DNA from: Saccostrea echinata
Taxonomy: Eukaryota
NCBI RefSeq assembly: GCF_033153115.1
Contig: NW_026889824.1
Span: forward strand, 2,046,001 to 2,110,000
Length of the DNA stretch: 64,000 nucleotides
Direction: 5' to 3'
Shown here: positions 14,453-56,310 of the stretch, in pieces
Position numbering within the stretch: position 1 is the stretch's first letter
Layout: every line of letters starts with the position of its first letter
Notes under the pieces: generated by a model
Database searches by the model: none
Seen by the model: the letters and a program-made list of their open reading frames with translations, nothing else
What the model was told of the DNA's origin: nothing
Made by a program: the position numbers and the translations under genes

Positions 14453-15967
14453 ATGAGGTCCCTCTTGGCTGTTCTGTTTCTGTGTGGGGCCGCCCTGTCC
14501 CACCCGGGTTTCCGTCTCCTCATCCCTAATGGCATTAATGTCCCTAACCCCTGCATTAATGTAGTCGGTTTATGGAATGCAGTTGGACACAACATAGAGA
14601 TCGGAGGTGGACCAGGAAATGTTTTCGGAGCGGTAATATTTGATTTTCATTTGCATATAGTATCTTATTTTAAAAAAACACTAATTCATTCCTTTTTTAG
14701 TTTTCGTATGACATTTTATTAAGATTAATTAATTTTCATCTATTCAAATCATGCCATGTATATAGGTCCTGAAAGATACAATTCTAAACTTACAGGAACA
14801 GTACCCCGAAATGATTTTCTAAATAGAAAGTAAAAAAAATAAGGAATATACTTCCAACTCATCCCTACATATCCGTGCTATTCGAGAGATCGATGTTTCA
14901 GCTATAGATAATAATATATATCAAGTTCTTTTAACCACTAAAAGAGTTTATAGATGTTAATTCATTGTCAGAGTTCACACGATGAACGAAAGATTGTATA
15001 ACATGAAAACATTCAAAAAAAAAACAAAAAACTACTGTAACTGTAAATCACTAGATTTTCGTGTCACCTTATTTTCGCGAGATTGTTTTTGGTATATATA
15101 AGCGAAACAAAATTTTCACGAATTTTGGTTATTATTTTATTTAATATTTAATTTATAGAAGAATGAAAATGAAATGAAAATGAAATTTTTGAGAGCAGAT
15201 AGCCTCGCGTACTTACGCTAAAATAAAGTTATCGCGAGTAAAAACTTATTTACAGTACATGTAGTCAGATGTATAACAGAGAGGAATTTGTCCTTGTGAT
15301 TTCAGGATTTCGTGGCGGCCAATACTCAGTGGACCAAGGACTTGTGTCAGAAAGACTCCGATATGGACGGCAAGACAAACGGTGAGGAACTGGGAGACCC
15401 GAACTGTGTGTGGAAGCAGGGGGACGCTCCAGCAGGGGATGCAACTGGTCACCCAGGTATGACTTCTCTAGTGTATAAACTGGTGGACTAACTAAACGGC
15501 GGGGTAGATGGAGAAGGGGATATAATTTAATCCTCTTTTATACGTTAAACAAACGTGATTTGGAAATACAAGATTCCTTTCTTGATAACATTAAGATTTT
15601 CACATTTATTTAATGTTAATGTGAGCTTTAGGGACAAATTTTATTGAAAAGGGGAACAGATTAAACATTCTTCCATTTAAAGTGTGTGTGTGTATGGGTG
15701 TGTGTGAGGGTGAGGGTGTGTATGTGTGTGTTACTCTAGAATAAATGTATTATTGCAACTTGAAATAACAATGATTGTTATTCATTTTGTCCGCTTCTGT
15801 GGGTATAGTACGTACATATACATGCGTGTATTTAGCTACAATTTAGGTAAAATTTGTTCAAGGGTGGTTTTCATTCTAAGAGAATCCTCTCTGTATTTTC
15901 AGGTATTTGTGAGCCGATGTCTGATGCCAATTGTATGAAGATTAATGCCAACATAACCTGTATATAA
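14453..15967 (+). CDS. Temptin-like secreted protein 1 (131 aa; exons 14453-14632, 15306-15456, 15903-15967)
   Basis: Signal peptide MRSLLAVLFLCGAALS. Temptin motifs IPNG.NVPNPC, W.AVGH, N.FG.DF, WTKDLC.KDSD.DGKTNGEELGDPNCVW, HPGICEP. GT-AG introns in phases 0 and 1 join into an open frame. Confidence 0.9.
15040..15257. mobile_element. Small TA-type MITE in temptin-1 intron 1
   Basis: actgtaaat ... atttacagta ends, with internal ttttcgcga-type motifs. Confidence 0.5.
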
Positions 15968-16113
15968 TCATGCCAATTTCCAATTATTCATCGTGTACAT
16001 TATTGCACATTTCATTAATTAGTTATTTTGCACTAAATGTGTCATGGTAGTGTATACAGAATATGTAGAATGTACATGTATTAATGTGTAGAAATGAGAG
16101 TATTAAATGAATG

Positions 16114-16604
16114 AACAAGATGTGTTTGTGAAACACTGATGCCCCCGTATGGCAGCTTATGGCGAAGGTTAAAGTTTCTTCAAATGCAAGTCAAAATCCA
16201 GGCCAAAAGATAAGAAATGTTGACACCCAAAGAAAGGTCTTGTCTCGAGGAATACACCTATGAAATTTGAAAGACCTAGATACAACTGTTCAGAAGTTAT
16301 GGCGAAGGTTAAAGTTTTTTGAATAAAAGTCAAACGTCAAGGTCAAGGTCAAAGTGGTTGGTATCCAAAGGAAGATCTTGTCACAAGGATTACATATGTG
16401 AAGTATGAAAGCCCTAGCACCAACCATTCAAAAGTTATGGCCAAGGTTAAAGTTTTTCAAAAGTAGGTCAAACTCCTAGGTCAAGGTCAAAGGGTCAAAT
16501 AGGTTGGTATCCAAAAGAAGGTCTTGTCACAAGGATTACATATGTGAAGTATGAAAGCCCTAGCATCAACCATTCAAAAGTTATGGCCAAGGTTAAAGTT
16601 TTTC

Positions 16605-16635
<31 letters not shown>

Positions 16636-16899
16636 AAAGGTCAAAGTGGTGGTTGGTATCCAAAGGAAGGTCTTGTCGCAAGGATTACATATGTGAAGTA
16701 TGAAAGCCCTAGCTCCAACCATTCAAAAGTTATGGCCAAGGTTAAAGTTTTTCAAAAGTAGGTCAAACTCTTAGGTCAAGGTCAAAGGGTCAAAGTGGTT
16801 GATATCCAGAGGAAGGTCTTGTCACAAGGAATACACATGTGAAGTTTGAAACCCTAAGCACCAACTGTACAAAAGTTATGGCCAAGGTTAAAGTTTTTC

Positions 16900-16930
<31 letters not shown>

Positions 16931-17341
16931 AAAGGTCAAAGTTGTTGGTATCCAAAGGAAGGCCTTGTCACAAAGAATACACATGTGAAGTTTGAAACCC
17001 CAAGCACCAACTGTTCAGAAGTTATGGCTAAGGTTAAAGTCTCATAAAATTTTGCAAAAGTAAGTCAAACTCCAAGGTCAAGGTCAAAAGGTCAAATATG
17101 ATGGTACCCAAAGAAAGGTCTTGTCACAAGGAATACACATGTGAAATATGAAAGTCATAGCTCCAACCAATCAAAAGTTATGGGCAAGGTTAAAGTTGAC
17201 AACAGACAGACAGACAAACAGACAAACGGACAAACAGACAAACAGATAAACAGACAAACAGACAAACAGATAAACAGACAAACAGACAGACAGGACAAAA
17301 ACAATATACCCCCGGGATCTTTCGATCCGGGGGCATAAAAA
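16114..17341 (+). mobile_element. Non-autonomous Helitron/Helentron-like element with ~7 tandem ~146-bp repeats and an ACAG/ACAA microsatellite
   Basis: Starts aacaagatgtgtttgtgaaacac. The unit containing tcttgtcacaaggattacatatgtgaagtatgaaagccc recurs at ~16375, 16520, 16669, 16815, 16961 and 17117. Microsatellite at 17200-17295; 3' hairpin cccccgggatc..gatccggggg followed by cataaaa. Confidence 0.8.
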
Positions 17342-19421: not shown

Positions 19422-20001
19422 ATGTTGTCAGGTGCCCTAACTGTGCTTTTCTTATCTTTCTCTGCGTTTGGACTTCCCGGCTATCGCTTGAAAATACCAA
19501 ATGGAATAAATGTTCCCAACCCTTGTACCAATGTGTTTGGATTATGGAATGGAGTGGGACACAATATCGCGAACGGAGGGGGGTCACTAAATCCGTTCGG
19601 ACAGGTACATGTACCCTAGAAAAAGTTTATGAGGGTGGCATTTTGCAAATGTTTTAGAATGTTCTGCTTAAATAAAGAAATTTAACAGCTTTTATCCCTT
19701 GTTTTGACAATTTAGGATTTTATGGACGCTAACTTTACCTGGACTCAGGAGCTATGTGGGAAAGACTCGGACTCTGATGGGAAAATTAACGGACTTGAAC
19801 TCGGAGACTTTAACTGTTCCTGGTTTGAAGGACAACCTCCCATGGGGGACCCCACAGGACATCCAGGTACTAATTTATAGTATACTTAATATTGTACGAA
19901 ATAATGGATATTGGGGATCCAACCGGGTTACCCAGAAATTAATTGCAGAAAAACACAGAACATGCTCTGGATGCACTGGACATCTTCCTAACTTTGTTTA
20001 A

Positions 20002-20069
<68 letters not shown>

Positions 20070-21295
20070 CACAGAACAGAATAATGCCTCTATTTTCTGA
20101 AGAAAGTAAATTGAGTCAAACATAGGGCAGGGTTTTGCATAGCACTTGTGCTTATAAACTATATAGTAGAGCTTTGTGAAACGTTCGCCTCAATACGTTC
20201 TATTTCCACTATGGAAGAGTTATACTTCTTAGTGAGCTCTTTCGTGAAAAAGTCGGTAAATGTACAAATCTCGCGGGATTTCAGGGACAAACGTAATGTA
20301 AACATGTAAACAGTATGTTGAATGTCGATGAACAAATCCTAAGAAAATGCAAATGAAATATTTTATTGTTGTGGACTTTATATACCTCAAGAGTAGGAAT
20401 GACAACGATATCAATTTATATCTATATTGTTGATCGTATGTATCTATTTATCGTATGCTACATCTAAATACAATATACATGCCTCGGAAATGTCGTATTT
20501 TTTATTAATGGATGATAAATTTAGGGTTCTCGCTCTCTTACATATATCTTTTAGTTCTTCCATTCTTTAATTGGAATGACAAATACATTTAACATTAAAA
20601 ATTGGATTGAGATTGGCATGTTTTATATTATCCGCAACGCCATGCTGTCCCTGTCAGACGACCAAACGCGCCTCTAATTTTGAAGAGTTCACTAATGGAA
20701 ATATAACGTATTTCTTAAATATTGAATCTATCACAACTGAACATAATCAACGGATTTCTCCAACCAAGTTATTCATGATCTCAAGAAAGAGAAATGCACA
20801 AAAATGAAAAAGGAAACGAGTAGCAGTGCTGTGACCATTTTAAAGATAAGAAAATAGAATTTTTTGATATTGTTGCACAAGGTCTTCTGCAGTGAATTGG
20901 TGTGAAAAATTGGCTACAATAAGTAGCACTAATTTGGTAGTTAGATTACAAGATAAATAAAATGATAATATGGATATCATAATTTGCAACATATTTCCCG
21001 GAAAAGCGGGTAATTCCCCACATACTAATATGTCCGATACATTTGTACAAAATTATTAATAACCATTAAAATTAATTTATTGTATTTTTTGTTAGTGTTT
21101 TTGTTTATTTTATTAAGGACTCTCTGTGCATTTATTACACGTATCATATCTGTGTGCAGTTCAAAGAAATTAAAGTCACAACTTGTCAAAACTTGCGATT
21201 TCCACAATTCAACTGTATATTTTTTTCCAGGTATATGCGAACCAATGGACGATCCCAAGTGTTTAGAAATCAACAAAGACATTACATGTTTGTGA
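19422..21295 (+). CDS. Temptin-like secreted protein 2 (132 aa; exons 19422-19604, 19716-19866, 21231-21295)
   Basis: Signal peptide, then IPNGINVPNPC..WNGVGH..LNPFGQ|DF..WTQELCGKDSDSDGKINGLELGDFNCSW..HPG|ICEPMDDPKCLEINKDITCL. Exons 2 and 3 have the same sizes (151, 65 nt) and phases as copy 1. Confidence 0.9.
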
Positions 21296-22072
21296 GATTG
21301 CAGAAATTAAAATGTCATAGTTTATTAATTTTCGTAAGCAGCGCTAAAATATTTATATTTTAGTTACAAATGTGATCTTTTTAGTTTTAATATATAACAT
21401 TTATTTTATTCACCTTTTTTTTTTAATTGCATGACTACGCATTTTGCTTCAGCGATAATATAAACAGTTTTCTTTATAAATTTTGTTCTGGTGTTGTAGC
21501 TGAGTTTCTGTTTTTTTTTTTAAACCTGATAGGAAAATTTCTGATATAGATATATCACATAATTAATTCACAATTAGTCCACAAACTAAAACTGTAATTT
21601 TCATTAATACAGCAGTGTAATGGTTTTTTTTCCCCTTATTTTAACAAAAAAAATGTAACGCATTTGGAAAATAAATATATTTACTTCCATTTACAGGATA
21701 TTAACAGATAAAAAGAAAACACGTAAATAAATAGGTGTATAATAATAACAAAAGGCAAAATACTAAAACAAGCATATAAAAAATACAATATCAGAAACTG
21801 GATTTTCCTGGGTTGACTGACTTCAAGTTTGAGATCCATCAAAATGATGTCCTAAAAAAGAAAGAAAATGATATGTGAAGACAAGTTTAATGTCATTTAG
21901 AAAACAAATTCTATACTACATGTAGGACATGTGTGGTTAGTTTGATAAAAGTAAAGATTATACAGAAAGAAAAAAGATTTTATTTTGATCATTGTTTTGA
22001 GTAAAATACACTTTAAATGAATAAATAAATAAATACCTTCATTATCATTCGATGCATCGTGATCACTTGGTG

Positions 22073-23286
22073 CTACGTACAAGGTTTGACCTTTTCTTCG
22101 TATCTGTAAAACATTTATTTTCATCATTTTGTAATTCTATGTTTGATGCCTTTTTTTTTTAATTTGTAAAGTACATATCATGATACATAAATAAAACGTC
22201 ACTAATCATTGGTGTAAACACTTTGAATTAAGAGTCATTTTCTGTGACACGTGTCAACAAACAACGGGAATTATTTATTAATTAGAGGAATATGAACTTT
22301 CTCCAGAAAATACATTGAAAAGAACAGAATCGTCACTCATATAGATACGTATATACGTCATCCAAAGCAAGGGAAGTTTTTTCAGCACTTGTTTTGAGGA
22401 AATACCTGTCGACCTGCTAGCCCCTGGACTATATTTAAACTTTTTTTTTTTTCTATTTGCTATAGGGACGTTTTACTCGGAGATATTTTAAATTATTTTG
22501 AATTCAAAATGAATGCATTTTTCCCGAAAGTGTCTGGGACGAAAATGCTGCGTAAATCATTAGAATAAATTTAATGAATTGAAATACTTATAAAGAACCA
22601 TTTACTGATAAGAAAAAAAAATGTCTGGACATTGAGAAAATTGTGAAGTATCTATACAGGTGTAAAAACTGAGTTTATTTACATTAATTTCATGTTTAAC
22701 AATTATTCCTAGAAAAAGGTTCACTGACAAGAAGAAATCACTATTGCTTAAAAGAAAATGGGATATGCAATTCAAATATAAGTATTCAACTAATTTATTT
22801 TCGTCAAATAAATGGTAAAGAAGGCTTAATCGAATTGATTAAAAATTTAGTAAGGAACGTTATTTTATTTAGATCTAAGGCAAATCACACTTTTCATACA
22901 GTGCAAAGAAGTCCTTAAAAGTATTAGACATAATTATAATATACGTACGCTTTCCAGGCCTCGCATGCGTTCTTGTATCTCTTGGTCCCGTCCAGGGTAC
23001 AATAGGGACTGTTTATATCAGGACACCGGAAATTCTCTCGGTTCTTAAGGTCCTTCGGTAACAGTGGTTGGGAGGAATACATTTGTAAACCTATAAACAG
23101 GTAAGATTTAGGACTTAGATATCAAAAATATGTAATTGTTCATTCTTGAACTGCAATAATTAAATTCTTTAGCAGCTATATAGATTAATGAAATTAAATA
23201 AAAAGTTTAATAATTAATTTAATGGAAAAAAAATTCTCACTTGAAAAAAGAATACAAGCAATCAATGCAATGTATATCATCTTCAT
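22073..23286 (-). CDS. Small secreted atypical Kazal-like protease inhibitor (~72 aa; coding exons 23286-23241, 23090-22949, 22103-22073)
   Basis: Spliced translation MKMIYIALIACILFSSLQMYSSQPLLPKDLKNRENFRCPDINSPYCTLDGTKRYKNACEAWKAYEEKVKPCT*. Canonical donors (gtgag, gtacg) and acceptors (tttatag, ttttacag) have compatible phases. C-x7-C-x2-DG-x3-Y-x-N-x-C resembles the Kazal core. Confidence 0.75.
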
Positions 23287-23911
23287 CTTCTTATATAGGA
23301 ATAACAATTTCTGTTTTTCTTTTCTCTATTTATACTGTGTCCAAGTCATTTGATTAATTTGCATAAATGGGTTATGCATGAATCGCATGTTCATCGTTAC
23401 ACCGGTTCTGTGGCCACCTTGCGTAATTCAAAAATCCCCATTCCTTCCTAAGATGAAAATAGGTCAGTGCAAATAATCCACTAAATAAATTTATGCGTCC
23501 ACTCTGTGAAAAGTTTAATTAATTCCACCAATCAAACGACAGACATGGGATTGTCTTCCAGAACAACTAATGTTTTAGAGGTTACGGGAGGGTTTAAATA
23601 GGCACGTGTAGTAAATATTAGGATAAATATTTACCGACTTAATTAATTATATGCGGATGTTTAGTTTTTGTCAATGTATTTCCACATGTACATCATAAAA
23701 AAAGTGATACCATTCCTTTGTCATGAGTAAATTACAGAAGAAAAACCAACAACTTTTAATTGTCATATCATCTACATGTATTTCGACCGAGATTTAAAAC
23801 AATTTATGTACAGAATGTCTCCACGAGTGCATAGGGATTGTTCCTAATTTAATTGAAAAAAAATCTGCCACATCACAAATGTAGATTTTTCTAAAACTTT
23901 CTCCTATTAAT

Positions 23912-27959: not shown

Positions 27960-30900
27960 TTATTTTCCCAATGCTGCCTCTAACATGATGGAAAAAGACA
28001 CAACAATACTGAACAACAGGTATATTACGAAGAAAACCCTGTCTAAGGCCACGGCAACTGAGGACCAGTCAACACTGTTTGGTTCCCTCTCCTGGTTGGC
28101 CAGGATTGAGGCACTACATTCTTTAATCTCCCTCAATATTTCTAGTAATTGTCCCTCAAACCCCACAATGAGAGGTTTCTGTTGTTTTTGGCTTTCATTG
28201 TCAATATATTGACGATGCTTACTTTCTTCTTGGTGAGGAAAATGGAAAATGTTTCCTTTTCTTTTATAACGTTCGATGTACAAATTATCCTGAAAAAATA
28301 GACCATATAGATTATACAATATTGTTTCTTACCAGTGAGTGATTAATGTATGTGTGTTATTTACAAGTACATTTCCTGCAAAGAAATTGATCACCTTTTG
28401 AATACCATTGCATGCTGCATCTACCAAAATGAAAATAAAAAACCAAAATTGAAAAAAATAAAGCCTTTTGACGCAGTAAAGCTTGAATTATCAGTTTCTT
28501 TTTATACATGTATGAAAAATACACAAATTTCATTAAAATATACAGTAATTACTGCGGTATATGCGGATTTTGTGTAACTAAAATGTCATTATTTAAATGT
28601 CACTTTATCTTTGAACATTCAAGAATTCATAAGTTACTGTATTAAAATTACATTTTTGTCGTGGTCATATTGTGCATACACACAAGCTATCGTCTGCAGT
28701 GGCTTGATGACGTATTTCCTGACTCTTGAGGACACGTGACCGCTGTTCTTGTAATGTATGTTGAGAACCAGTACAGTCATCAGACAGGACAAACCAACCA
28801 AGATCATCGAAACAAGGAAGTAAATTGCTGGAAAGGAAGAGAGGGATGATTACTGCAAGGAAAATCTCTTTCACAATTTCTCCGAGTCATTATTAGTAAT
28901 ACATGAATTTAATTTGCTGTCAACAGTTTTTTTCTTTCAGTCTCTGGACATTCAAACTTTGAAAAATTGAGCTAATTCAATAAATGAAACACAACTTTGA
29001 TTTTAGGTTGCATAACGCCTAATGACTAATTTACAGTATGCGAGGTCGAAATCTTCATAAATGAGTTGGGAGAAAACAGGAGTAAAAAAGATATATCTTA
29101 AGAATCCACGGAAAACAAACCTAATAAAGGAGGGTTTTCTCCAGACGCGGGAATCATGTTTACGATGACCAGCTGAAAAACAGCCAGGGACAGAAGGACA
29201 GTGATCTCCAGATTGACCTTCTCCCCAGCCTCAGGGGGCAGGATAAAACCAAGACCAGCCGTAAAGGACACCAAAAAGCACGGAAATAGCAGGTTCATGA
29301 CGTAAAATAAAGGTTTTCTCCGCAATCCCAATATACACTCCATTGTTGGGTAGGAAACGTCACTGTAGTACGTGACGACACTGGTGGCGTCCGCTCTCGT
29401 GACGTCCCATTCCGTGTTGTTGACGTAACTAGACATATCTAGGGTCGAACTCTTGTTGACGATGTGCACCTCTGCCCCAGTGTAGATCCACGACCCAAAC
29501 ACAAGACGACATTCCTGGGTATCAAACGGAAAGTGATAAACGTCGATGGCACAAGACGTCCGGACACTGGAGGGAAACTGATATTGTACTCGGCCATCAC
29601 TGTGCACGATGGCTCGATAATCCTTCATCCCCGGGAGTCCCTTCACATCAGTTCTAATATTAGATCAAAAGAAATATCATAGAAATATTTTTATGCGTAT
29701 GCTTGTGTACTTTGCTTCTGTCTTTTGGCCTAGGATCATGAAATAAACCTGGACTTCCGTAAAAATTTCAATAATCTGTAAAATGGTTGTAGCTATAAAA
29801 CAAAGCTTAAAATGTGCATAATAACAGCAGTCTGACTACTCACAGGCCCGTAGGAACCGGGGTGGGAGTCGTGTCCCCTCCCAATAATTTTGCAAGTATA
29901 TACAGTTCATTAAATACAATAAATATATATAGGAAATGAAGATAAGTTACAGTTGTGCACCCTCAATAATTACGCCCGATGACTTTTTTTGTTAGGAATG
30001 TTCGTAAGGTAGCCCCCCCCCCCCCCCCAAAAAAAGAAAACTAACTTTGTTAGGTTGCTCACCCTAACCTGAAATTGCTTCTACGTGCCTGAGGAATTCC
30101 TATAAACATATTTATTTTTAGAACTATATCATTTCGGCGCAATGTAAGCATTTCTGAATAAATTATTTCCTGATCCTGGGCCCTGGTCTGATAGATTGCT
30201 TTGCTTTTTGTAAGTACATAGGTATATAAGTTATATAATAGTGTTTCTGTTTATATTTATAAGTTTATAAGAATGATACATGTGACAGCGGTGAATAGGT
30301 AAGGGAGCGTTCTCGAATAAATTATTCTCTCTCTCTCTCTCCTGATACCATACGTGTCATAAAGTGTAAGATCAGGGATCCAAATTTTGTCCTGTGGTAC
30401 AGCAAGCCTGTCGATTCCGTTATAGTGGGACTTATTCCATCTTAATCTACAGTCAATCCAGTCCTGAAATGAACTCAATGTTAGCTGCACTTTTCACTGA
30501 ATGACAACTTAATAAATACACCGACATGTTGATTCTATCTTACGGCGAGCGTGGGATTCCTCGTTAATTTTGTCAGAATTCTGAAGTTTGTAGATAATTA
30601 ATTTCACAGGTAAAATGGAGACATTGTATGACTGTATACACAAGATAATGATTAAAGTAAAGCATTACCACCCTCATCCAGACCGTCACATCAATGGTCT
30701 GTTTGGGTTCATTCTGAAACATGAAACATTTTAATATAAATTTTCTTCCTCATCATATTTTTTTATCACTAAGAATTAATAAAAACTAACACTTTGACTT
30801 TGTTGACATGTACATATTGGTAATTAAAAATATTTGATGATACTTTTGACATCCTGCGTCTGTTTACACATTAAATCAAAGCGTATTTGGTCGACCCCAA

Positions 30901-35418: not shown

Positions 35419-36173
35419 ATTAACTAAGACAAATTTGATATTGTATATATATACAGTTGAACTTCGGTATCTCAAACACTGATATCTTGAATATATCTTG
35501 GATATATAAAAGTGATTTGAAAGTCCTAAACCCTTATTCTTTAAGTATTTCACCCTGGACATCTCGACTCCTCATATATCTCAAATTTTTTTTCTCTTTC
35601 CCAAATGATATCTATATATATATCATAAGTGTGGTGGATTCTACCCATAAGATAAACCTATGCTTTAATTATCCACAGGTATATATCAATAACACTTCCA
35701 GTTTTGACACAATCCCTTGCTTCAAGATGTAAATTTATGGAAACTTCTATCTGTGAAAGTTCTTCATTATAAAATGGATACCTATGAGTAAAAATGTTTG
35801 TTATAAACAAGAGTTTTGATGTTTTTTTAGGCTATTCCATTGTTAATCATTCATAGAAATTCATAAATTGACAAACCTGCAGATGGGCATTTTTAAAACT
35901 CTTACACAGCCAGTTGAGAAATATATGATGTATCATTTGTTGTAATTAATAACTACACTATAGGAGATGCACATCAAACATTAGGAATGGAAAAATCATT
36001 GAAATCTTTGTATCAAGGTTGACATGATTATCTTCCTTGAACTCTAAACTGTTTATGATAAGTAAACAATATTTGATGGGCATATCATATGTGTGGCAGT
36101 GCACGTTATTGATCTCACTCATTACTTCGATGTTTTACCCTAATATATGTATTTTTTAATACAGATTTTCAAT

Positions 36174-39100
36174 ATGAATGAGCCAGAGATTTTGACAGAA
36201 GTACCAAGCACATTAAAGAGACTGATTAGATTAGTGGTCAGAGGGTTCTACAGTATAGAGCACGCAATGATTATCGACCTTCTAGTCCGCAATCCCTGCA
36301 TGAAAGAGGATGACATCGTGGACATTCTCAGATTCGAGAGGAAACAACTCCGAGCTCTTATAAATACCTTAAAAACAGAAAAGTTTCTCAAGACAAGAAT
36401 GAAAATGGAAACTGATGCTGAGAACAAATCGACTCGCCAGACATACTACTTCATTAATTACCAAGTGTTTGTCAACATTGTCAAGTATAAACTAGATCAC
36501 ATTCGCAGGAAGATTGAAATGGAAGAAATGCACAACACTAGTAGGGCTTCTTTCAAATGTCCCACTTGTGAAAAGACATTCACTGACCTTGAAGTCAACG
36601 AGTTGTTTGATGTTATGAGTGGGACGTTCCGATGTACGTTTTGTGAGAATGAGGTTGAGGAGGAAGCCGGGGCCACATCAGTCCAAGACACGCGAACTTT
36701 ACTTGCCAAATTCAACGAACAGATTCAGCCAGTGTTTGACTTGTTACAAAAGTGTGATGACATCAAATTAGCCCCAGAGCTTCTGGAACCAGAACCCACA
36801 GATCTCAATAGAGTTCACAACAGGTTTATATCATTAACACTCATCAAATGTAGAGTTTGTAAACAGACTGGATTTTTTTATATGCATGTATAATTTTGCT
36901 TTGTTAAAGAAAATTTAGACATTGGTGCAATCTTACTAAAATTTGATGTTAGATCCACTCACATACTTACTACATTAAGTTAGTGTAGTGAGTATACGAG
37001 TGGATCTAACATCTAATTTTAATTAGATTTACATTGTTGAAGCAAGAAATTATGGAACAAAACAAAACAAAAAATTTTAAAAAATCAGATCATAAGACAT
37101 TAATTTTGTTACTTTTTTATTTGTACACTCCTTCACAATAATCCCTGATGATTAAACTGTTACAAATTGACTATATACATTTTAGGTCACATTCTTCAAA
37201 GACGTCCAATGCAGACAGGGGTGTTTGGAGTGGTGATAAGAATAGGACCACCAACTATAACCTGGGATCTGACGCCACCGTCACCATCAGTATGGGAGGG
37301 GAGGGGGAGACAAAGAAAAGCGAGGCAGTTAAGGAGGTGCCAATCTGGATGTCACAGAGTACTGTAGAGGGGGGACAGGAAGACAGCAGGGTCAGTATTC
37401 ATACATCACCATGGTTACATTGTAAACATTCAGGTTTAACTTAGTAAACAACTGTGTTAATGAATTCTTGGCAATAGAATCTATCAGATGAATTATTTCC
37501 TTTCATGACAACTGCTACACATAGGTTGCAGATGAGGGATTATTGTTTATCTTTAATCATTATTTACCTGAAAACAAGTCATGGTGGTAATAAAATGCAA
37601 AAGAAATCTAAAACTTGGTAATAATATCATTATCATTATTCAAATTAAGGTTAAAGTGATGATGATTTGTGCATGGACTGTCTTTGGAGTAATGATCAAG
37701 ATATACATATATTCTGTAACTGACCATAACAGAGAAATGTACTGGTAATTGGCTATGCCCGGACAGTACACTTAATTACATGTATAAACAGTATAGTATC
37801 ACTTACAATTGGAAAATCTTTCATTTAGGAAAAGGACTGAATGAATGCAAAAGTCTTTTTTTCTGAACATTGTTTTGACAGACTACTGAAATTCTCCTTT
37901 TAATGCTTGGGATACTTTTTTGTGGTAACTTTTGTAAAGTATTAACTGGAAGGTCATTTTTAAGTGGTTAATTGGCAAATGGAAAAAATAAATACAAAAT
38001 TGAGATCCATATCAAAAAATAGGAAACAAAGGATTTTACAATTGCTACCATATCATAGACTTTTGAATCATTGAAATTTTAAAAGCAAGATACCATAATT
38101 GACATTGTCACTAAAAATATCTCATTTTAACAGAGCTCTTTTGTCAATGAGGAATCCAAACCAGCACATCTAGAAGCAGCCAACCGATCAGCGGTCAACA
38201 GCGAGATTGAAACACTCTTATACATTCATGAGAAGAAGGGTGGGGCCCCTGGGGGCTCCCTACCTGGTCAGAGAAATGACAGCTCCAGTAGTGACTCAGA
38301 GGAAGAGACACCTAAGATCTCAGCTCCATCTCATAATACAGGTAATATCTCAGCTCCATCTCATAATACAGGTACATTTAAGATGTCAGCTCCCTATCTC
38401 AAAACACAGGTAAGATGTCAGCTCCATCTCAAAATACAGGTAAGATATCAGCTCCATCTCTTAACAGAGGTAAGATATCAGCTCCATCTCATAAGAGAGG
38501 TAAAATCTCAGCACCATCTCATAATGCAGGTAAGATGTCAGCTCCATCTCATAATACAGGTAAAATCTCAGCTCCATCTCATAACACAGGTAAAATCTCA
38601 GCTCCATCTCATAACACAGGTAAGATATCAGCTCCATCTCATAACACAGGTAGGATCTCAGCTCCATCTCAGAACACAGGTGAGATGTCAGCTCCATCTC
38701 ATAACACAGGTAAGATTGTCAGCTCCATATCTCATAAGGCAGGTAGGATCTCAGCTCAATCTCATAATGCAGGTAAAATTTCAGCTCCATCGCTTAACAC
38801 AGGTAAGATGTCAGCTCCATATCTCATAAGGCAGGTAGGATCTCAGCTCAATCTCATAATGCAGGTAAAATTTCAGCTCCATCTCATAACACAGGTAAGA
38901 TGTCAGCTCCATCTCATAACACAGGTAAGATGTCAGCTCCATGTCTCATATTACAGGTAAAATGTCAGCACCATCTCATAAGGCAGGTAAGATGTCAGCT
39001 CCATCTCATAAAGCAGTAAGATCTCAGCTCCATCTCCCCTTCCTTTTGTGTAAGTGAGATCGAGATCAAAAGTAAACTCATCTAAGTTGTATAGCCCTGA

Positions 39101-39391
39101 AGCTTTGTCTGTCACACTCTCTCTCACTCCATTTCATATACAGTATGTCATTGTGTACATGCACATAATAATTATATTGTAGAATTGTTTGTCATTGTAA
39201 ACCATAAGATTTCAATGCTGTTTGTAGTTGAGGAGATGGAGAGTGAGGAGGAGGATACCATGGTAACCATTGCCGGGAAGAAAGTGCCCCTCCATGAAGT
39301 TACAGATGAGATGGTGGCCAAAATGACTCCAGAGGAAAAAGAAGATTACATACGACTAGGTCAAGAACTCTATCAAAACATGTACGAATGA
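36174..39391 (+). CDS. GTF2E1: General transcription factor IIE subunit 1 (TFIIE-alpha), ~408 aa; exons 36174-36823, 37186-37390, 38134-38341, 39228-39391
   Basis: [36 protein letters not shown]; [22 protein letters not shown]; Zn ribbon FKCPTC..FRCTFC; C-terminal acidic segment and [20 protein letters not shown] joins are phase-compatible. Confidence 0.95.
38313..39036 (+). repeat. 30-bp minisatellite (~24 units) spanning the TFIIE-alpha exon/intron boundary
   Basis: Unit ~aagatctcagctccatctcataacacaggt. The first unit is coding (KISAPSHNT) and ends at the splice donor. Confidence 0.95.
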
Positions 39392-44519: not shown

Positions 44520-45936
44520 GTACTCTTTCTTGATATATAAGATATTTATAAAAATTATAAGGCTCACTGCTGATACAGACTGATATATATAAATTTCCTG
44601 TTGAATTGTGTTGTAGATGAGGTACAGGTAGAGGGCTGAATTAAAAGCTGCTTTCTTCTCCTGGGCCATTGATATAGAGAGCTACAAGTGAGTTACTGTG
44701 GTTACCAATTTAATTATGACCTGCTTTATCAGGCGGGTAGCCAGAATGGAATTGAAGTGTAGGCAGAGAACAGCAGGGGGTCAGAGTTAGGTTCCAACTT
44801 TCACAAATCAAAATTTTATTATTACATTACCAATTTACTATGATTTAACTAGGCTACAACAAAAAAAGTGAGGGGGGGGGGGTGGGGGGGGCATGCAACC
44901 ACCTTTTTCAATGAACATTTTCAATAGTAAAAGGTTAGATTTTGAAATAAGTGAGGGGTGAGGTCACCCCCTTGCTCCCGTGATACTATGTGCCTGCTGG
45001 TGAGGGTCCAGAAGCTCCTGCGTTTTACCAAATATTTCATTCATTTTCTTGCAAAATGAAAATTATGCCATTTAAGACGTAGTAATATTTATTGTTTTAA
45101 AGCAAAGTTAATACTCCCAATAAAACTTACTGTACATGTAGTTTGAACTAAATATTTAACCTATATATCGGTATCATCTACTCTTGTTTAACATTCAAAA
45201 ACATGTATACTAATTAAATGTTAATTATATTAACAAAAATATTGTATTTTAAATCATATTCTAGTAGATCATAGCATTCAACAATGTGTTTGAAAATTAT
45301 TTTTTCAAAGATCTCTAAAAAAATCAATGTATTAAAGAACTATTTCAAATTAATGAATGATTTATTTGGATTTAATTGGCAATGATTTAATAAAGGATTT
45401 CAAATTTTATTATACAGTCATGGTAATATTAAATTCAAATAAAAACAGTATGACACAAAATAATTTGAAACATGAATATTTGTTGGATGGTACTGAGATT
45501 TTTTCTTTGAATACCTCTCTCTCTCGCTCTTGAAAATGATGTGTATGCACTTGAGTATTTGCATATAGGCAGCTATGTGCCTGTTTATCCACTGATGCTG
45601 TAATCTCATTATTGTTGCTATGGTTGTGTGTATCTGATGTAATTAGTGACAAATGATTTCATTATTGTTGGGGACAAAATGAACTGGATTATGCAGACAG
45701 TTTAAAAACACACTGTAGTCAGTTAAAAGGAAAAATACCATTAATGATATATACTTTTTTCATTTCTCCTTATCATACAAAGGAAAAAATCAGACTTGTC
45801 CCCATGTTTAATTATAAACTTAGATTTTTTGATATTTTTCTCAATGTGTAAACAAATGAATGTGTACTTACAGGTTTCATGGATTGACGAGAGAAGAAAA
45901 AAAAGCAGAAGCTGCATCATCTTTGAAAGCTAAAAT

Positions 45937-48111
45937 ATGGCAAACATCATTGAATTTACCTCCAGCTGTTTCTTCTATTTAAACCAGTATTTTAGAACTT
46001 TCTGGCCAATAAAAATTTTATTTGACCACCCACTTCATCCCCCATCTACTGAAACTGAGCTAAAAGTTCTCCGTGCAATATACCTACTGCGACATCAAGA
46101 CGACCTGGAAGCTGTGATGCGCATAGTGGAATCACTTCCCAAGGATGAAGATATTCTAGGTGTTTTTGACCAACACACCAAGTACAATCTCATCCAGTTA
46201 GCTGTAATCACCAACAACAAACCCCTTGTAAACAAACTAGTGCAATATTACTCTGGACATTTGAATCTTAAGTGCAATAATCCTGTGCACTTAGCCTCTC
46301 ATTTAGGGCACTATGGTATTTTAGAGACATTGTTGGAGAGAGGAGGGAGGAGTGGACAGATTGCTGGGATGTGTTACCCTGGGCCCCACTCCCCACTGGA
46401 GGCCTACAAAATCCTTGGTTTATTAGACTATTCCAGTTATAAATGTCAAGTCAATGTTGACCTCCCAGTGTTTTATGCCATCTCCAGTGATAGTGTGAAC
46501 TGTGTGAAGCTGCTGCTGTCACAGATGCAATCAGAGAGAGTGCCTCTACCATCTCCTTCAAGACTTCTTCATTTTGCATGCTGTAAAGGAACTTTGAACT
46601 GTCTTCGTTACTTTGTGGAACGATTTCCAGATGAAGTCAATTCACTGAACTCAAAAAAAGAGACTCCACTACTTCAGGCAGTTGTCTGGGGAAGAGAGTG
46701 TGCTAAATCTCTCATAGATAATGGTGCAGATGTAAACTGTGTTTCTAAAACTGGTGAAACTGCCCTACATAGACTCTATTGCAATGACATTGATGGGTTG
46801 TTCACCATATTTGACACCACAAAGTACCTGTTGACAACAGGAATTGAGCAGTTAGTGAATGAAGTGGACAACTCAATGGAGACTCCACTACATTATCTAG
46901 TGACGCATGTGTCGTTTATTGGAGGAAATCTCCTCCATCCAAGTCAGAGCCAGAACCATGTAACCAGATTGCAGCTACAACCAGATTACCAGGATCAGGT
47001 TGTTCAGTCCTTAGATCTCCTGCTAAAGTTCAACGCCGACCCTCTGAGGGAGAACCGCTTTGGCTTGCAGCCCCTTAACAAGCTCATGCATGTGGCACTT
47101 AAGTCTTGTGGTACCATGGGCAAAATGCTGTGTGACTGTGTTCAGTTTTCCATTGACTCTAAATATCTCTACAAGAATGATTTCAGCCATCTAAACAGTG
47201 CTCTGGAGGTTCTACTAAGACATGGATCAGATCCAAATAGTCTTTGTTCAGAAGGTCATTCTTCTTATCAGATTTTTCTTCAGTGTTTGTTGGAAAACAA
47301 TCTTGTGGAACTCTGTAATCAAGCAGAGGGTGTTGTCTCATCATTATGTACATTGTTAAAGTATGGTGCTAAAGTGAATTTCCAGACGAATAATGGTTTC
47401 ACTTGTTCCACCATTCTGGCAAAGTTTGCAGCCAGACACTTTACGATTCCAGTCTCTGAAGATTCCAAAATGTTGAGGGAAGAGTTTTCAAATCTTGTTT
47501 GTGAAGTCTTGCGAGCTCACTTTATGCATGGACTGAATCCAAATGTTTTGACAAATGCTAAACATCCATATTTAAAGGGAGGAATGGGAAATGCAATCAT
47601 TGAATTTGTTCATCTGTCTAAACTTGCCAAATGTCCGTCAGACTTTGTCGTGATTCGCCGCTGGTTAACAGTCATCCTCCAGTGGGGAGGTGACCCTGAT
47701 GTAGAACCTTATCAATCAGAACCCATCATCTGCCATTCCCAGAGTTCCATATTTCTTCGTCACCAAGGCACCCAGCCTGTAAGCCATTACATTCATGAGA
47801 TGAAGGATGAGGATGCTCTCTATAGAGATGGTTATGCAGAGGAGCTGCTCATGTTGTTTTATCACTCCATGAGCCACAAGGAACTCTGTGAGTGCCTTAA
47901 TTCTGCCCGCTCTATGACAAGATTTCATCCTATGGGAGCAGTTGGGAAGAAATTACTTCAGATTCTTAGCTCAATGTCAGAAAGTCCCAGAAGTCTGATG
48001 GAGATCTCTCGTGTTGTGATTTACAAATCAATAGATAGACAGTTGGCTGTAAAGGTACCACATCTACCCATACCAAATTCTATGAAGAAATACCTTCTTG
48101 AAATTCAGTAA
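45937..48111 (+). CDS. Ankyrin-repeat and SOCS-box protein (ASB-like), 724 aa, single coding exon
   Basis: Ankyrin motifs (NPVHLASHLGH..LETLLERG; ETPLLQAV..LIDNGADVN; GETALH; ETPLH) and a C-terminal SOCS box PRSLMEISRVVI..LPIPNSMKKYL. Acceptor ttacag at ~45873 lies upstream. Confidence 0.9.
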   Translation: MANIIEFTSSCFFYLNQYFRTFWPIKILFDHPLHPPSTETELKVLRAIYLLRHQDDLEAVMRIVESLPKDEDILGVFDQHTKYNLIQLAVITNNKPLVNKLVQYYSGHLNLKCNNPVHLASHLGHYGILETLLERGGRSGQIAGMCYPGPHSPLEAYKILGLLDYSSYKCQVNVDLPVFYAISSDSVNCVKLLLSQMQSERVPLPSPSRLLHFACCKGTLNCLRYFVERFPDEVNSLNSKKETPLLQAVVWGRECAKSLIDNGADVNCVSKTGETALHRLYCNDIDGLFTIFDTTKYLLTTGIEQLVNEVDNSMETPLHYLVTHVSFIGGNLLHPSQSQNHVTRLQLQPDYQDQVVQSLDLLLKFNADPLRENRFGLQPLNKLMHVALKSCGTMGKMLCDCVQFSIDSKYLYKNDFSHLNSALEVLLRHGSDPNSLCSEGHSSYQIFLQCLLENNLVELCNQAEGVVSSLCTLLKYGAKVNFQTNNGFTCSTILAKFAARHFTIPVSEDSKMLREEFSNLVCEVLRAHFMHGLNPNVLTNAKHPYLKGGMGNAIIEFVHLSKLAKCPSDFVVIRRWLTVILQWGGDPDVEPYQSEPIICHSQSSIFLRHQGTQPVSHYIHEMKDEDALYRDGYAEELLMLFYHSMSHKELCECLNSARSMTRFHPMGAVGKKLLQILSSMSESPRSLMEISRVVIYKSIDRQLAVKVPHLPIPNSMKKYLLEIQ

Positions 48112-53392: not shown

Positions 53393-56310
53393 TTATTCTC
53401 GATGATCACAGAAAAATTGAATGAAAACAGACTGATTTTGTAGTTCTGGAATTGTATACAAGTCATTCAAATCCCAGGACATGCGCACTGCATCACCATA
53501 GTTTTTACCATATTCCCATGGGGTATTATTGTTTACTCGGAGAGCCCCCGAACAGGGGTGAAAACCCGGAGAATTCTTGTCTCTGCTCCGACAGAAGGCC
53601 TGACATTTTCGTCCACACGAGTCATAAGCAGACAGAAGGACTTCTGTATCGTTCTGACCAGGACTTTTAAGTCCAATATAGGTGGTGGACTCGGTAAACG
53701 CCTGCCTCAGATCCACGATGACGTATTCGTCATAATTTCCCTGGTAATTAAGTCCGTTAGATCGAATGTGAATGCGACCAACTGTTCTATCCCCAGTGAC
53801 AGTTTTACATTTTTCTGATGATGGCATGAGTTCCTCTGAGAAGTATGGTTTGATTTCTTGATACTGTTCTGGATCGTAGATGTCGGCCTTGACGGAAGGC
53901 TTTCCATCAATGATTGCGTATGCTTTAAATTTACGGTGCTCAGGAGACCGTTTGTTAACAACACGAACAGGTATAAACACCCATTTTCGGGTATCTCCCT
54001 CATTGTCGATTTCGAAGGTATTCTGGCTGGAGAAAGAGACCCACGTATTGGAGCATTGCATCTGTTTGACCATTACCTGGTGGTAAGAGTTTGAAGAGGA
54101 CTTTGCATTAATTGTCACCCTGTCTTTAGTTGCTTCTCTCTTTTTACGCCCAAAAGGGAGGGGCATTCCTCCTAGCCGTGGACCAGCACCCATCACTCCA
54201 GGCACACCCCTCATTCGAGCTGCTCGTAGCTGTGCTGGAGGAGGACCCGAGGAGATCGGCAAGCACTGCGGGACACCGGTGGAAAGATCGCACGTCAGGT
54301 ACGGAGAACCACAGTTGGAGTTTTGGAAGGAACATGTCGGATGTGGCTGGTAAGTATATATTTGGGAGGTAAACATGTCGCTTATTCCAAATACATTTGG
54401 CAGGTTTCCAAATCCTGTAGGTGTAAAGGGGGCATGTGACTGTGGGCCGTAATTCTGAGGATAATCTTGGGTGGGGTCTATTCCCATGGCTCGCTGCTGC
54501 TGACGGAATATTTCCCAAACATAATCGACAAAGGCATGGTGAAGGTAAAAAACAGGATCAAAAGCAGACGTTTCCATAGGCTCCATCTGACCTCCGATCC
54601 ATGTATGTGCATCACCGTGGTAATTTTCAATGTTAAACTGGTCGGGAGCAGCGGGTTCTGTGATTTGCCCCATTCTTGTTCTGGTCAGTATGTTCCTTAT
54701 GGCTTGTCTTGAGAGCAGCTGACCATCCTGTCCTATATTTCTGATGAGTGGTCCATTAGGAGTTTGCCAGAAGGCGAATGGTCCATTTGTCACCAGACCA
54801 TCTCCGTTGCCGAGGAACTGTGGTGACCACGTGACGGATTGGGTAGGGTCAATCATCGCCTCATCCATTGTCGAATCCCAGTATGGTAAAGTAACACCAG
54901 GTACCATTTGTCTCAATGCATTCTCAAATCTAAAATCAAATAAAATTAAAAGCTAGTGAATTTTCTTGTAGAAATAATATATTTTACAAATTTATCGTTA
55001 CAAACGTAGAGGATTGCTACATAATACAACTGAATCATGAACTTACATGGTGATGAATATTCTATGCCAAGCTAAGAATGCTCCTCCATGGTGTATATTA
55101 TCAACCATTCGAAAGTGAACAAGTCCAAGTGCATCATATCGGTTAGGTCGAATAGTCTGGATAAAATTGTATGGAAAGAATATGTATTTAAATGAACATT
55201 AATTCAATCTTGTATGCCTGCATATGTAGATTTATTTGTCATTTCAAAACTGTCCATTTATAAAATTATAAATAAGGTTTGTTACGGAGATTGACTTACC
55301 GTATCCTGTTTGAGTAGTAGAATGGCTCTGTGGAAGTTGGCTCTCTCCTGCTCCGTCATCGTCCTATACTCCTTCCTTATCCTTAACTGAGGACGCTGTA
55401 CCTGAGGTATACCAGTAGGCTGTGCTGCGGACATGGTCGGAGACATCACTGTTGGCTGAGGTTGGAATGCGTTCACAGGCTGAAAATTTTGTTGCGTTTG
55501 TACAAATGCTGGCTGCTGGGGTTGCACAAATGTCGGCTGCTGGGGTTGCACAAATGATGACTGCTGGGATGAAGCAAAATTAACTGCCTGTGGTTGTTGG
55601 GGTGGAGCAAAATTAACTGCCTGCTGAGACTGTTGAACTACTGATTGTTGGGAAAATTGATTTTGAACAGGATTTGTCTGGATTTGAGAAGCTTGAGTCT
55701 GGATTGGTTGATTCTGTCCAGCTAGCGGTTGTTGTTGTACTGAACCTTGGAAAACTTGCTGCTGTGTCTGGACCACTGATTGTGATGGAGGCTGCGGATT
55801 CCCGCCGATGATTGGAAACGGCCTCGTTTGTCCGGGCTGAAACCTCTGGGCCTGGCTTGATCCAGTATGTTGATTAACAAATGACTGGAGAGTTTCTGAT
55901 TGGTATTCCGGCCCCTGTGAATTCTGTGTATTCGATGTTTGTGAATCTTCATCTGTAATGATGGGCTGTGGGGGGAATTGGACGTTAGGATACAGAGAGG
56001 GATTATCTGCTTGTCTTTTGTTTATGGAATGAAGGTCCAGCTTCATATCCACGTTTGACATTCTGAGTAGTTCATTAATCCAGCTGACCGTGTCCTGAGA
56101 TACGTTGGCGTGTTTGAACTTGTCACCTGTGAGTTTCATCCTGTGGCTGTTCATACACCACTTGTTCATGGCTTCCCAGCTGGCAGCACCTTGATTCTTT
56201 ATCCGCTGTTTTTCCAAACATTCTGTAAAGGACTCGGGTAAATCGATTTCCTCTATGTAAGCTCCCACTAATACTAACACTGTAAAGATGATGCATAAAT
56301 GCTTCTTCAT
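53393..56310 (-). CDS. Secreted tyrosinase-like protein (885 aa; exons 56310-55300, 55156-55047, 54929-53393)
   Basis: Signal peptide; RIRKEYR; CuA His in LVHF..IHHGGAFLAWHR; LPYWDS; CuB NYHGDAHTWIGG.M..SAFDPVFYLHHAFVDYVWE. Splice phases are compatible. Confidence 0.93.

Follow-up and report, generated by a model that had tools for sequence, protein, structure and literature searches.

A conserved gene for a stand-alone, divergent Kazal-like mini-protein with four mature cysteines in the oyster Saccostrea echinata

Gene structure and genomic setting

The window analysed here, a 64,000-nt stretch of the Saccostrea echinata genome (assembly GCF_033153115.1, contig NW_026889824.1, positions 2,046,001 to 2,110,000 of the forward strand), carries on its minus strand a small Kazal-like gene that lies next to two temptin-like genes (Table 1). 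Three exons (23286-23241, 23090-22949, and 22103-22073) join into a 219-nt frame, which runs from an ATG at 23286 to a stop codon at 22075-22073 and encodes 72 residues with no internal stop, as a preliminary description of this stretch had proposed. In fact, the two coding joints it had predicted are both present in Logan contigs, with 22103/22949 seen in all four runs and 23241/23090 in three of the four (the contig of the fourth run ends at 23090), and the introns are of the GT..AG type. These runs (X1-X4) were taken as RNA by guess, none being on record as RNA, and they come from at most two samples of one study; the intron-free joints, together with one contig of run X1 whose loose end at 21663 is poly(T), point to processed mRNA. 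The gene is thus real, spliced, and small. Moreover, two elements absent from the earlier model were recognized, these being an extension of exon 3 to 22037 and a non-coding exon 4, which is preceded by a 185-nt GT..AG intron. Here, the exon 3 donor at 22036 was read from the sequence, with the same exon and its Cys71 also found in a related locus (L058, see below), while the joint between exons 3 and 4 was deduced from contig pieces, as the repeat at that place was skipped in the joint listing. Neither of the canonical signals AATAAA and ATTAAA was found in exon 4. Three variants placed in exon 2 (23020, 22987, and 23023) are all third-position synonymous changes.

Cysteines occur at positions 11, 38, 46, 58, and 71 of the encoded protein, the first of them within a leader whose hydropathy reaches 3.3 over 9 residues. 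This leader is likely a signal peptide and the 72-residue protein is likely secreted, with the four cysteines of its mature part (38, 46, 58, and 71) being those that had been recognized earlier.

Table 1. Features of the Kazal-like gene and its surroundings (window positions unless a contig is named).
Feature	Position	Strand	Evidence or remark
Temptin-like gene 1, 131 aa, three exons	14453..15969	+	Exon 1 passes Pfam Temptin_C
Temptin-like gene 2, 132 aa, three exons, tail-to-tail neighbour	19422..21295	+	Gene model; both joints in run X5
Exon 4, untranslated, poly(A) site near 21663	21663..21851	-	Contig pieces in X1-X4
Exon 3, last codons including Cys71 (C6), stop, start of 3' UTR	22037..22103	-	Contig pieces 22046-22103
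Intron 2, 845 nt, GT..AG, phase 2	22104..22948	-	Joint in 4/4 runs
Exon 2, 142 nt	22949..23090	-	Pfam Kazal_1, E 0.038; 142 nt also in L058
Intron 1, 150 nt, GT..AG	23091..23240	-	Joint in 3/4 runs
Exon 1, coding part, 46 nt, hydrophobic leader, followed by phase-1 intron	23241..23286	-	Contigs of runs X1-X3; 46 nt also in L058
TATA-like box	23328..23334	-	At -48 in window, -50 in L058
Octamer ATGCAAAT	23357..23364	-	78 nt upstream of ATG; same motif at -78 in L058
Heptamer TTACGCA	23420..23426	-	At -140 in window, -171 in L058, inside conserved block
Probable second, uncollapsed haplotype of window 1-34444	G000:C77:1140001-1190000 (L002-L007)		Collinearity

The two temptin-like genes lie in tandem and are identical at 83 of 127 residues. 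As had been noted earlier, the second of them is the tail-to-tail neighbour of the Kazal-like gene, with the plus-strand gene ending 368 nt from the poly(A) site. Run X5, which belongs to a second study, has spliced temptin-2 yet no spliced contig of the Kazal-like gene, and runs X1, X2, and X4 show the reverse, though this contrast carries no weight because contigs cannot show absence. Upstream of the Kazal-like gene are exons of a ligand-gated, nicotinic-receptor-like ion channel (27960-30493, minus strand; Pfam Neur_chan_LBD and Neur_chan_memb). Elsewhere in the window are a B-box/NHL-type gene (1203-2939, minus strand), an ankyrin-SOCS-box gene (45934-48111, plus strand), a tyrosinase gene with a Gln/Pro-rich N-terminal exon (53393-56331, minus strand), and a TFIIE-alpha gene (36144-39391), between the exons of which lies a tandem repeat with long open frames (38131-38960, plus strand) that is probably an intronic minisatellite.

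A protein search of the 923 Mb genome produced two candidates, both of which matched, namely the window gene and a copy on contig C77 that encodes the same protein. We rejected this copy as a paralog, since its collinearity with window 1-34444 at 89-99% identity best fits the other haplotype, and the gene is single-copy. In the C77 haplotype, intron 2 of the Kazal-like gene carries ~600 nt of inserted sequence, and several indels of kb size surround the temptin genes. Absent there is also an array of related ~150-170 nt repeats, which in the window (16130-17200) is situated between the two temptin-like genes.

Relatives and selection

To find relatives, metagenome contigs were scanned with a sequence pattern, and from 353 pattern matches one locus (L058) was kept. 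Here, the whole gene is present, with a 46-nt exon 1 and a 142-nt exon 2 in the same phases and a donor right after the stop, and its protein is identical to the window protein at 43 of 72 residues and has cysteines at the same five positions. Thus, the frame and the four-cysteine pattern, the conservation of which the preliminary description had made a test of its proposal, are both kept in this relative, as are the exon phases. Comparison of the two genes gave a dN of 0.33 and a near-saturated dS of about 3, the domain alone gave a dN of 0.20 vs a dS of 1.35, and dN/dS is about 0.1-0.15; the gene is conserved under purifying selection. The longest invariant run between the two proteins is found at residues 55-66, which belong to the helix and not to the loop, and positions P6 to P1 are identical.

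An unbiased search of 1.84 billion proteins returned 21 matches at E ≤ 0.001. Among these, P0002 heads a 42-sequence cluster in which none of the 40 sequences read is named and the 15 listed are all from Logan. This cluster represents exon 2 of another organism, read through into its flanking introns and 63% identical, and is referred to below as the third lineage. The identity of exon 2 among the three lineages is 22-29/46, and we infer them to be three species. Of the 12 Kazal contact positions, 10 are identical to the window protein in L058 and six in the third lineage. The four residues after the fourth Kazal cysteine (C4) are invariant in all three lineages, and Phe36, which occupies the position of the first (C1), is likewise invariant.

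A word-based search with exon 2 found no candidate among proteins of 25-81 aa. With a four-sequence alignment, such a search gave one match among five candidates of 25-170 aa, this being an unnamed Logan cluster, and no match among 228 longer candidates, which is weak evidence against fused forms. The ESM Atlas offered one lead, an 'accessory gland protein Acp63F-like' entry at 0.76, which was set aside as below the useful level, and it offered nothing when queried with the relative. No named protein for the gene was found in the protein collections searched, and no paper on it in the literature, for which coverage was mostly open-access and where supplementary gene tables of oyster omics studies may list it.

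Promoter region

The upstream regions of the window gene and L058 align with a score of 42, whereas 500 random pieces of the window reach no more than 29 and the introns 24-28. Three short elements are found in both regions (Table 1). The octamer ATGCAAAT, which we take to be a POU-factor site, has a chance expectation of about 0.03 per 200 nt of the window, and the heptamer TTACGCA presumably resembles a bZIP/C/EBP site. One contig begins at 23396, upstream of both the octamer and the TATA-like box, so the start site is not fixed. From this point, a transcript would take in short upstream ATG frames (23287-23396, minus strand) that end before the main ATG, and the contig itself would represent an alternative start site or unprocessed RNA.

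Kazal descent

Exon 2, the part covered by our Pfam scan and the carrier of three of the four cysteines, matches Kazal_1 (PF00050) and no other family, with 14.5 bits (E 0.038) against a cut-off of 21 bits. Kazal_1 is also the only Pfam match of two third-lineage sequences (13.3 and 15.2 bits, same cut-off), and exon 2 of L058 has no Pfam match. Stronger evidence than Pfam comes from the gene structure. A genome Pfam search gave 143 matches. We sampled the loci of the top 30 together with 20 more stretches, chosen around clusters, and in this sample the Kazal pattern is matched at 86 distinct places; in 73 of these, a GT donor follows the Cys4 codon at a distance of 14 nt. In the window gene and L058, the phase-2 intron likewise lies 14 nt after the Cys4 codon, i.e., at the very same base. 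Kazal descent is thereby supported, and the common intron position shows that the gene descends from the animal's own multi-domain Kazal genes. Moreover, a profile built from 65 Kazal exons of this genome scored the mature protein at 15.9 bits and P0022 at 10.6 bits, neither score being reached by any of 2000 shuffles (Cys-fixed for the window protein), and L058 at 4.8 bits, which 48 of 2000 shuffles reached.

Kazal repeat proteins also dominate the unbiased search of 1.84 billion proteins, with 87 Kazal-pattern domains counted in 14 of the 18 matches examined. P0001 and P0017, which are repeat-driven non-Kazal matches, were left out of this count along with P0002. A 30-bit profile score and an Asp-P1 count of 37/87 obtained from this material were not used as evidence, because the source proteins had been picked by their likeness to the query.

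On the structural side, phmmer found no Kazal among PDB sequences, and its single match, a zinc finger at E 0.35, was rejected. When folded with its relatives alone, exon 2 is modelled as a helix only (pLDDT 65), while a Kazal-seeded alignment, which biases the model, produces a hairpin plus helix (pLDDT 79). With the seeded model, the top 28 of 38 Foldseek rows are Kazal or follistatin, none at E 0.001, and VIA gave five Kazal rows out of five (Z 2.1-2.2). Since the model is biased by its own alignment, these matches show compatibility only. For the profile and structure check suggested in the preliminary description, Kazal_1 is the sole family matched, at a score below the cut-off, and the Kazal-like fold is seen with the seeded alignment.

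Cysteine arrangement

Exon 2 encodes a linker, Cys38, a reactive-site-like loop with Asp40, and Cys46, followed distally by Tyr-x-Asn-x-Cys58 and the start of the helix. Cys58 is identified as C4 by the Tyr-x-Asn-x-Cys motif, and from it follow Cys46 as C3, Cys38 as C2, and Asp40 as P1, whereas Cys71, located 13 residues after C4, is too far for C5. On this motif and the position of Cys71, the earlier assignment of the cysteines to C2, C3, C4, and C6 is borne out, and so is that of Asp40 to P1 by its position relative to C2. The bridges would then be Cys38-Cys58 (C2-C4) and Cys46-Cys71 (C3-C6).

With four mature cysteines, the window and L058 proteins fall outside the classical six-cysteine arrangement (1-5/2-4/3-6). 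The C1 and C5 positions are taken by Phe36 and Lys62, and Trp61 adjoins the latter. Otherwise, the loop has the C2-x7-C3 spacing with P1 two residues after C2, and all three lineages have Pro at P2 and P4' as well as the aromatic-x-Asn-x-Cys4 motif in the form of Tyr/Phe54, Asn56 (P15'), and Cys58. No cysteine occurs at C1 or C5 and a single one (C6) follows the helix, as in GmSPI-2. In LEKTI/EPI1a-type domains, C1, C2, C4, and C5 are kept, but here C3 is present and no cysteine is found within 12 residues after C4. From its sequence, we thus predict the window protein to be a GmSPI-2-type two-disulfide Kazal, neither classical nor LEKTI/EPI1a-type.

The loss of the C1-C5 pair had been pointed out earlier. 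It is not supported as a remarkable feature, as the same loss is known in GmSPI-2 and CrSPI-1 domain 1 and is seen in 13 of 72 Kazal exons in this genome. Among these exons, which are those with the common intron, counted at the positions scored and after dropping L034 (a follistatin-type domain), C1 and C5 are both present in 53 and both absent in 13, six have C5 only, and none has C1 only. A Fisher p of 4e-10 for the co-loss overstates independence, because the exons are related. Six of the 13 exons without C1 and C5 carry an extra cysteine pair upstream.

Comparison with known Kazal proteins

Published systems are compared here as described in the available portions of their sources. GmSPI-2 (PDB 4HGU), known as silk protease inhibitor 2 and found in Galleria mellonella, consists of one domain of 36 residues, bridged by Cys5-Cys24 and Cys13-Cys39, and is an inhibitor of both subtilisin and proteinase K (PMC4169406). 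By our own mapping, these bridges would correspond to C2-C4 and C3-C6. The window protein resembles GmSPI-2 in being a stand-alone four-cysteine domain with seven residues between C2 and C3 and P1 two residues after the first cysteine, and GmSPI-2 is among the five VIA rows for the seeded exon-2 model (Z 2.1, rmsd 1.8, 28 aligned). It differs, however, in P1 (Asp/Asn vs Thr in GmSPI-2), in the C3-C4 (11 vs 10) and C4-C6 (12 vs 14) gaps, and in having about 20 conserved residues before C2; moreover, GmSPI-2 is a demonstrated inhibitor and the window protein a predicted one. The non-classical Kazal domain 1 of horseshoe crab CrSPI-1 has bridges Cys1-Cys19 and Cys8-Cys35 and is seen bound to subtilisin in a crystal structure (PMC3082530). 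The window protein is predicted to have the same two bridges, and likewise has its first domain cysteine at P3 and a Pro at P2. Yet the CrSPI-1 domain is the first half of a two-domain protein, with His at P1 and a P2' Tyr that stacks on Phe188 of subtilisin, while the window protein has a single domain and a polar P2'.

The multi-domain Kazal genes of this genome (L008-L057) have in common with the window gene the phase-2 intron 14 nt after Cys4. Unlike this single-domain gene, they have domains in tandem, in which Val-Cys-Gly and Thr-Tyr are canonical and the helices vary. The atypical domains of Phytophthora EPI1/EPI10 and of LEKTI type are two-disulfide Kazals as well, with Asp as P1 in EPI1 and EPI10 (PMC7382257), though another account gives Glu for EPI1 (PMC3082530). 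However, these atypical domains are without C3 and C6 and so lack the other bridge (PMC1236909). Lastly, conkazal-M1, a relative of schistosomin, inhibits subtilisin weakly (Ki 1.1 µM) and also affects calcium signals in neurons (PMC13101452). Like the window protein, conkazal-M1/schistosomin of gastropods is a molluscan, single, non-classical Kazal with an acidic P1 (Glu) and a conserved sequence, a likeness of description and not a sequence link, but conkazal-M1 has eight cysteines, four bridges, and an extra C-terminal helix.

Subfamily features and the P1 residue

Several positions set the three lineages, as far as each can be compared, apart from the other Kazal exons in the genome. The C3-C4 gap has 11 residues vs 10 in 73/73 exons, and a Trp at C4+3 is found in none of these 73. 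Thr/Arg follows C3, where 63/65 exons have Gly, and Tyr/His precedes it in place of Val (62/65). Similarly, Arg stands before the Tyr in place of Thr (60/65), and P2' is Asn/Asp where 59/65 exons have a hydrophobic residue. In the window protein and L058, the C4-C6 gap is 12, without a Gly two residues before C6, as against 14 in the four-cysteine genomic domains read. Taken together, this is a conserved, stand-alone, divergent Kazal subfamily with several broken consensus positions and an invariant helix. As loss of the C1-C5 disulfide is already known, it is this subfamily that constitutes the distinct part.

P1 is Asp in the window protein and L058 and Asn in all 15 listed third-lineage sequences; among the 73 other Kazal exons in the genome, three have Asp. 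In the portions available, PMC7382257 describes Asp-P1 as uncommon among the Kazal domains of animals but carried by roughly half of the Kazal inhibitors of oomycetes, and reports that Asp-P1 domains inhibit Asp-selective subtilases. The rarity of this residue, as put forward earlier, hence stands for animals in general, but is qualified by the Asn of the third lineage and the three Asp exons found here. A parallel with oomycete EPI inhibitors had also been drawn, and a common Asp at P1 agrees with it. Yet the two-disulfide domain of EPI1a is without C3-C6, the other bridge, so the oomycete parallel is limited to P1, and the common P1 of EPI domains and the window protein is at most convergence.

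Putative function

With confidence only slightly above even, we favour a secreted, substrate-like serine-protease inhibitor that has Asp/Asn at P1 and whose target is most plausibly subtilisin-type. Removal of the leader would leave about 56 residues (6.6 kDa, pI 8.8), in which Cys38-Cys58 would tie the loop to the helix and Cys46-Cys71 the hairpin to the short tail. The invariant Asn56 (P15') would brace the loop, and Phe36 at the C1 site and Trp61 beside the C5 site, both invariant, may pack in place of the lost bridge. The target, a secreted protease of mucus or some other secretion, would take up loop 38-43 in its active site and accept P1 residues that are small and either acidic or amides; a subtilisin-type enzyme is the most plausible one. 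In support of an inhibitor, all three lineages keep both the Cys at P3 and the Asn at P15', which PMC1236909 names as the two conserved Kazal contact residues. Pointing the same way are the 10 of 12 contact positions identical between the window protein and L058, the action of GmSPI-2 and CrSPI-1 domain 1 on subtilisin, and the inhibition of Asp-selective subtilases by Asp-P1 domains. Conservation of the contact residues, in place of diversification, makes a stable target more likely than a fast arms race. Counting against an inhibitor are the Pfam score below the cut-off, the lack of a Pfam match and the low profile score of L058, the lack of a Kazal among PDB sequence matches, the five consensus breaks, the short C4-C6 gap, the helix-only model obtained with relatives alone, and the centring of invariance on the helix.

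A clearly less probable alternative is that the Kazal fold has been co-opted to make a secreted ligand, either without inhibitory activity or with a dual function, in which the reactive loop is vestigial. A helix face made up of Glu59, Trp61, Lys62, Tyr64, Glu65, and Glu66 would in that case bind a receptor, channel, or matrix partner, with the conserved N-terminal Leu-Leu-Pro and Arg33/Phe36 forming another part of the binding surface. The identity of residues 55-66 between the window protein and L058 at near-saturated dS fits such a ligand, as do the invariance of the four residues after C4 with its unusual Trp at C4+3, the polar P2' and further consensus breaks, the single copy with its conserved promoter, and the precedent of conkazal-M1 as a molluscan Kazal fold with other roles (PMC13101452). 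Against it, however, Cys at P3, Pro at P2 and P4', and Asn at P15' persist in the three lineages and P6-P1 is identical in the window protein and L058, so the loop is not drifting freely. Much less credible is the idea, raised in the preliminary description, of a co-secreted and co-regulated protector of the neighbouring temptin pheromone-like proteins. Although the tail-to-tail placement, with 368 nt separating the stop of temptin-2 and the poly(A) site, and the fact that both are small proteins with hydrophobic leaders would suit it, convergent genes share no promoter and the Kazal-like gene has a conserved promoter block of its own. Moreover, the 1739 bases after the L058 stop contain no temptin match, though little sequence is covered and the last temptin exon is itself small. 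Adjacency is the one thing that ties the gene to temptin, and the pheromone-protecting role is not upheld. Equally improbable to us is an unrelated four-cysteine secreted peptide of another fold whose likeness to the Kazal motif is by chance. The sub-threshold Pfam score, the unmatched exon 2 of L058, the lack of a Kazal among PDB sequence matches, and the lack of a significant fold match would agree with this, but not the intron, whose base and phase are those of the Kazal genes of the genome, nor the profile score above 2000/2000 Cys-fixed shuffles, nor the predominance of Kazal repeat proteins in the unbiased search.

Going further, and quite tentatively, the gene might represent an ancient, unannotated, single-copy bivalve subfamily of Kazal mini-proteins, in which a Phe/Trp core stands in for the C1-C5 bridge and the invariant helix, in place of the reactive loop, is the main working surface. 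Its members would be either retired inhibitors serving as signalling or defence ligands, or dual-function inhibitors of a conserved Asp/Asn-cleaving secreted protease of the animal itself.

That a verified small gene has no named protein in the collections searched shows how conserved, secreted micro-proteins go unnoticed in these genomes. It would carry Asp-P1 Kazal biology, so far described mostly for oomycetes, over to an animal gene that is conserved, and its product, at 6.6 kDa and with two predicted disulfides and a P1 of acidic or amide type, lends itself readily to production and assay. Should the helix prove to be the functional face, the protein would join the few molluscan Kazal folds that serve as ligands.

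Other Kazal loci in the genome

Additional features were observed among the sampled Kazal loci. At L054:8871-9500 (G000:C45, about 918900-919500), three successive frames have repeats rich in Arg, Lys, and aromatic residues that lead into Cys-x7-Cys-Gly, and only the third frame completes a Kazal motif, without C1 and C5. These are possibly a cationic antimicrobial-like Kazal offshoot, or else decayed exons. In L026, L037, and L056 (G000:C54), the first Kazal domain, which comes after a hydrophobic leader or has no upstream cysteine, lacks both C1 and C5. In L026 and L056, six-cysteine domains come next, which is the layout of horseshoe crab CrSPI-1. Lastly, nine loci (L010, L014, L025, L028, L030, L036, L044, L047, and L055) contain Kazal arrays with an extra cysteine pair around C6 (Cys-x3-Cys-Pro-Cys), and these are apparent eight-cysteine domains, or six-cysteine domains with a different third bridge.
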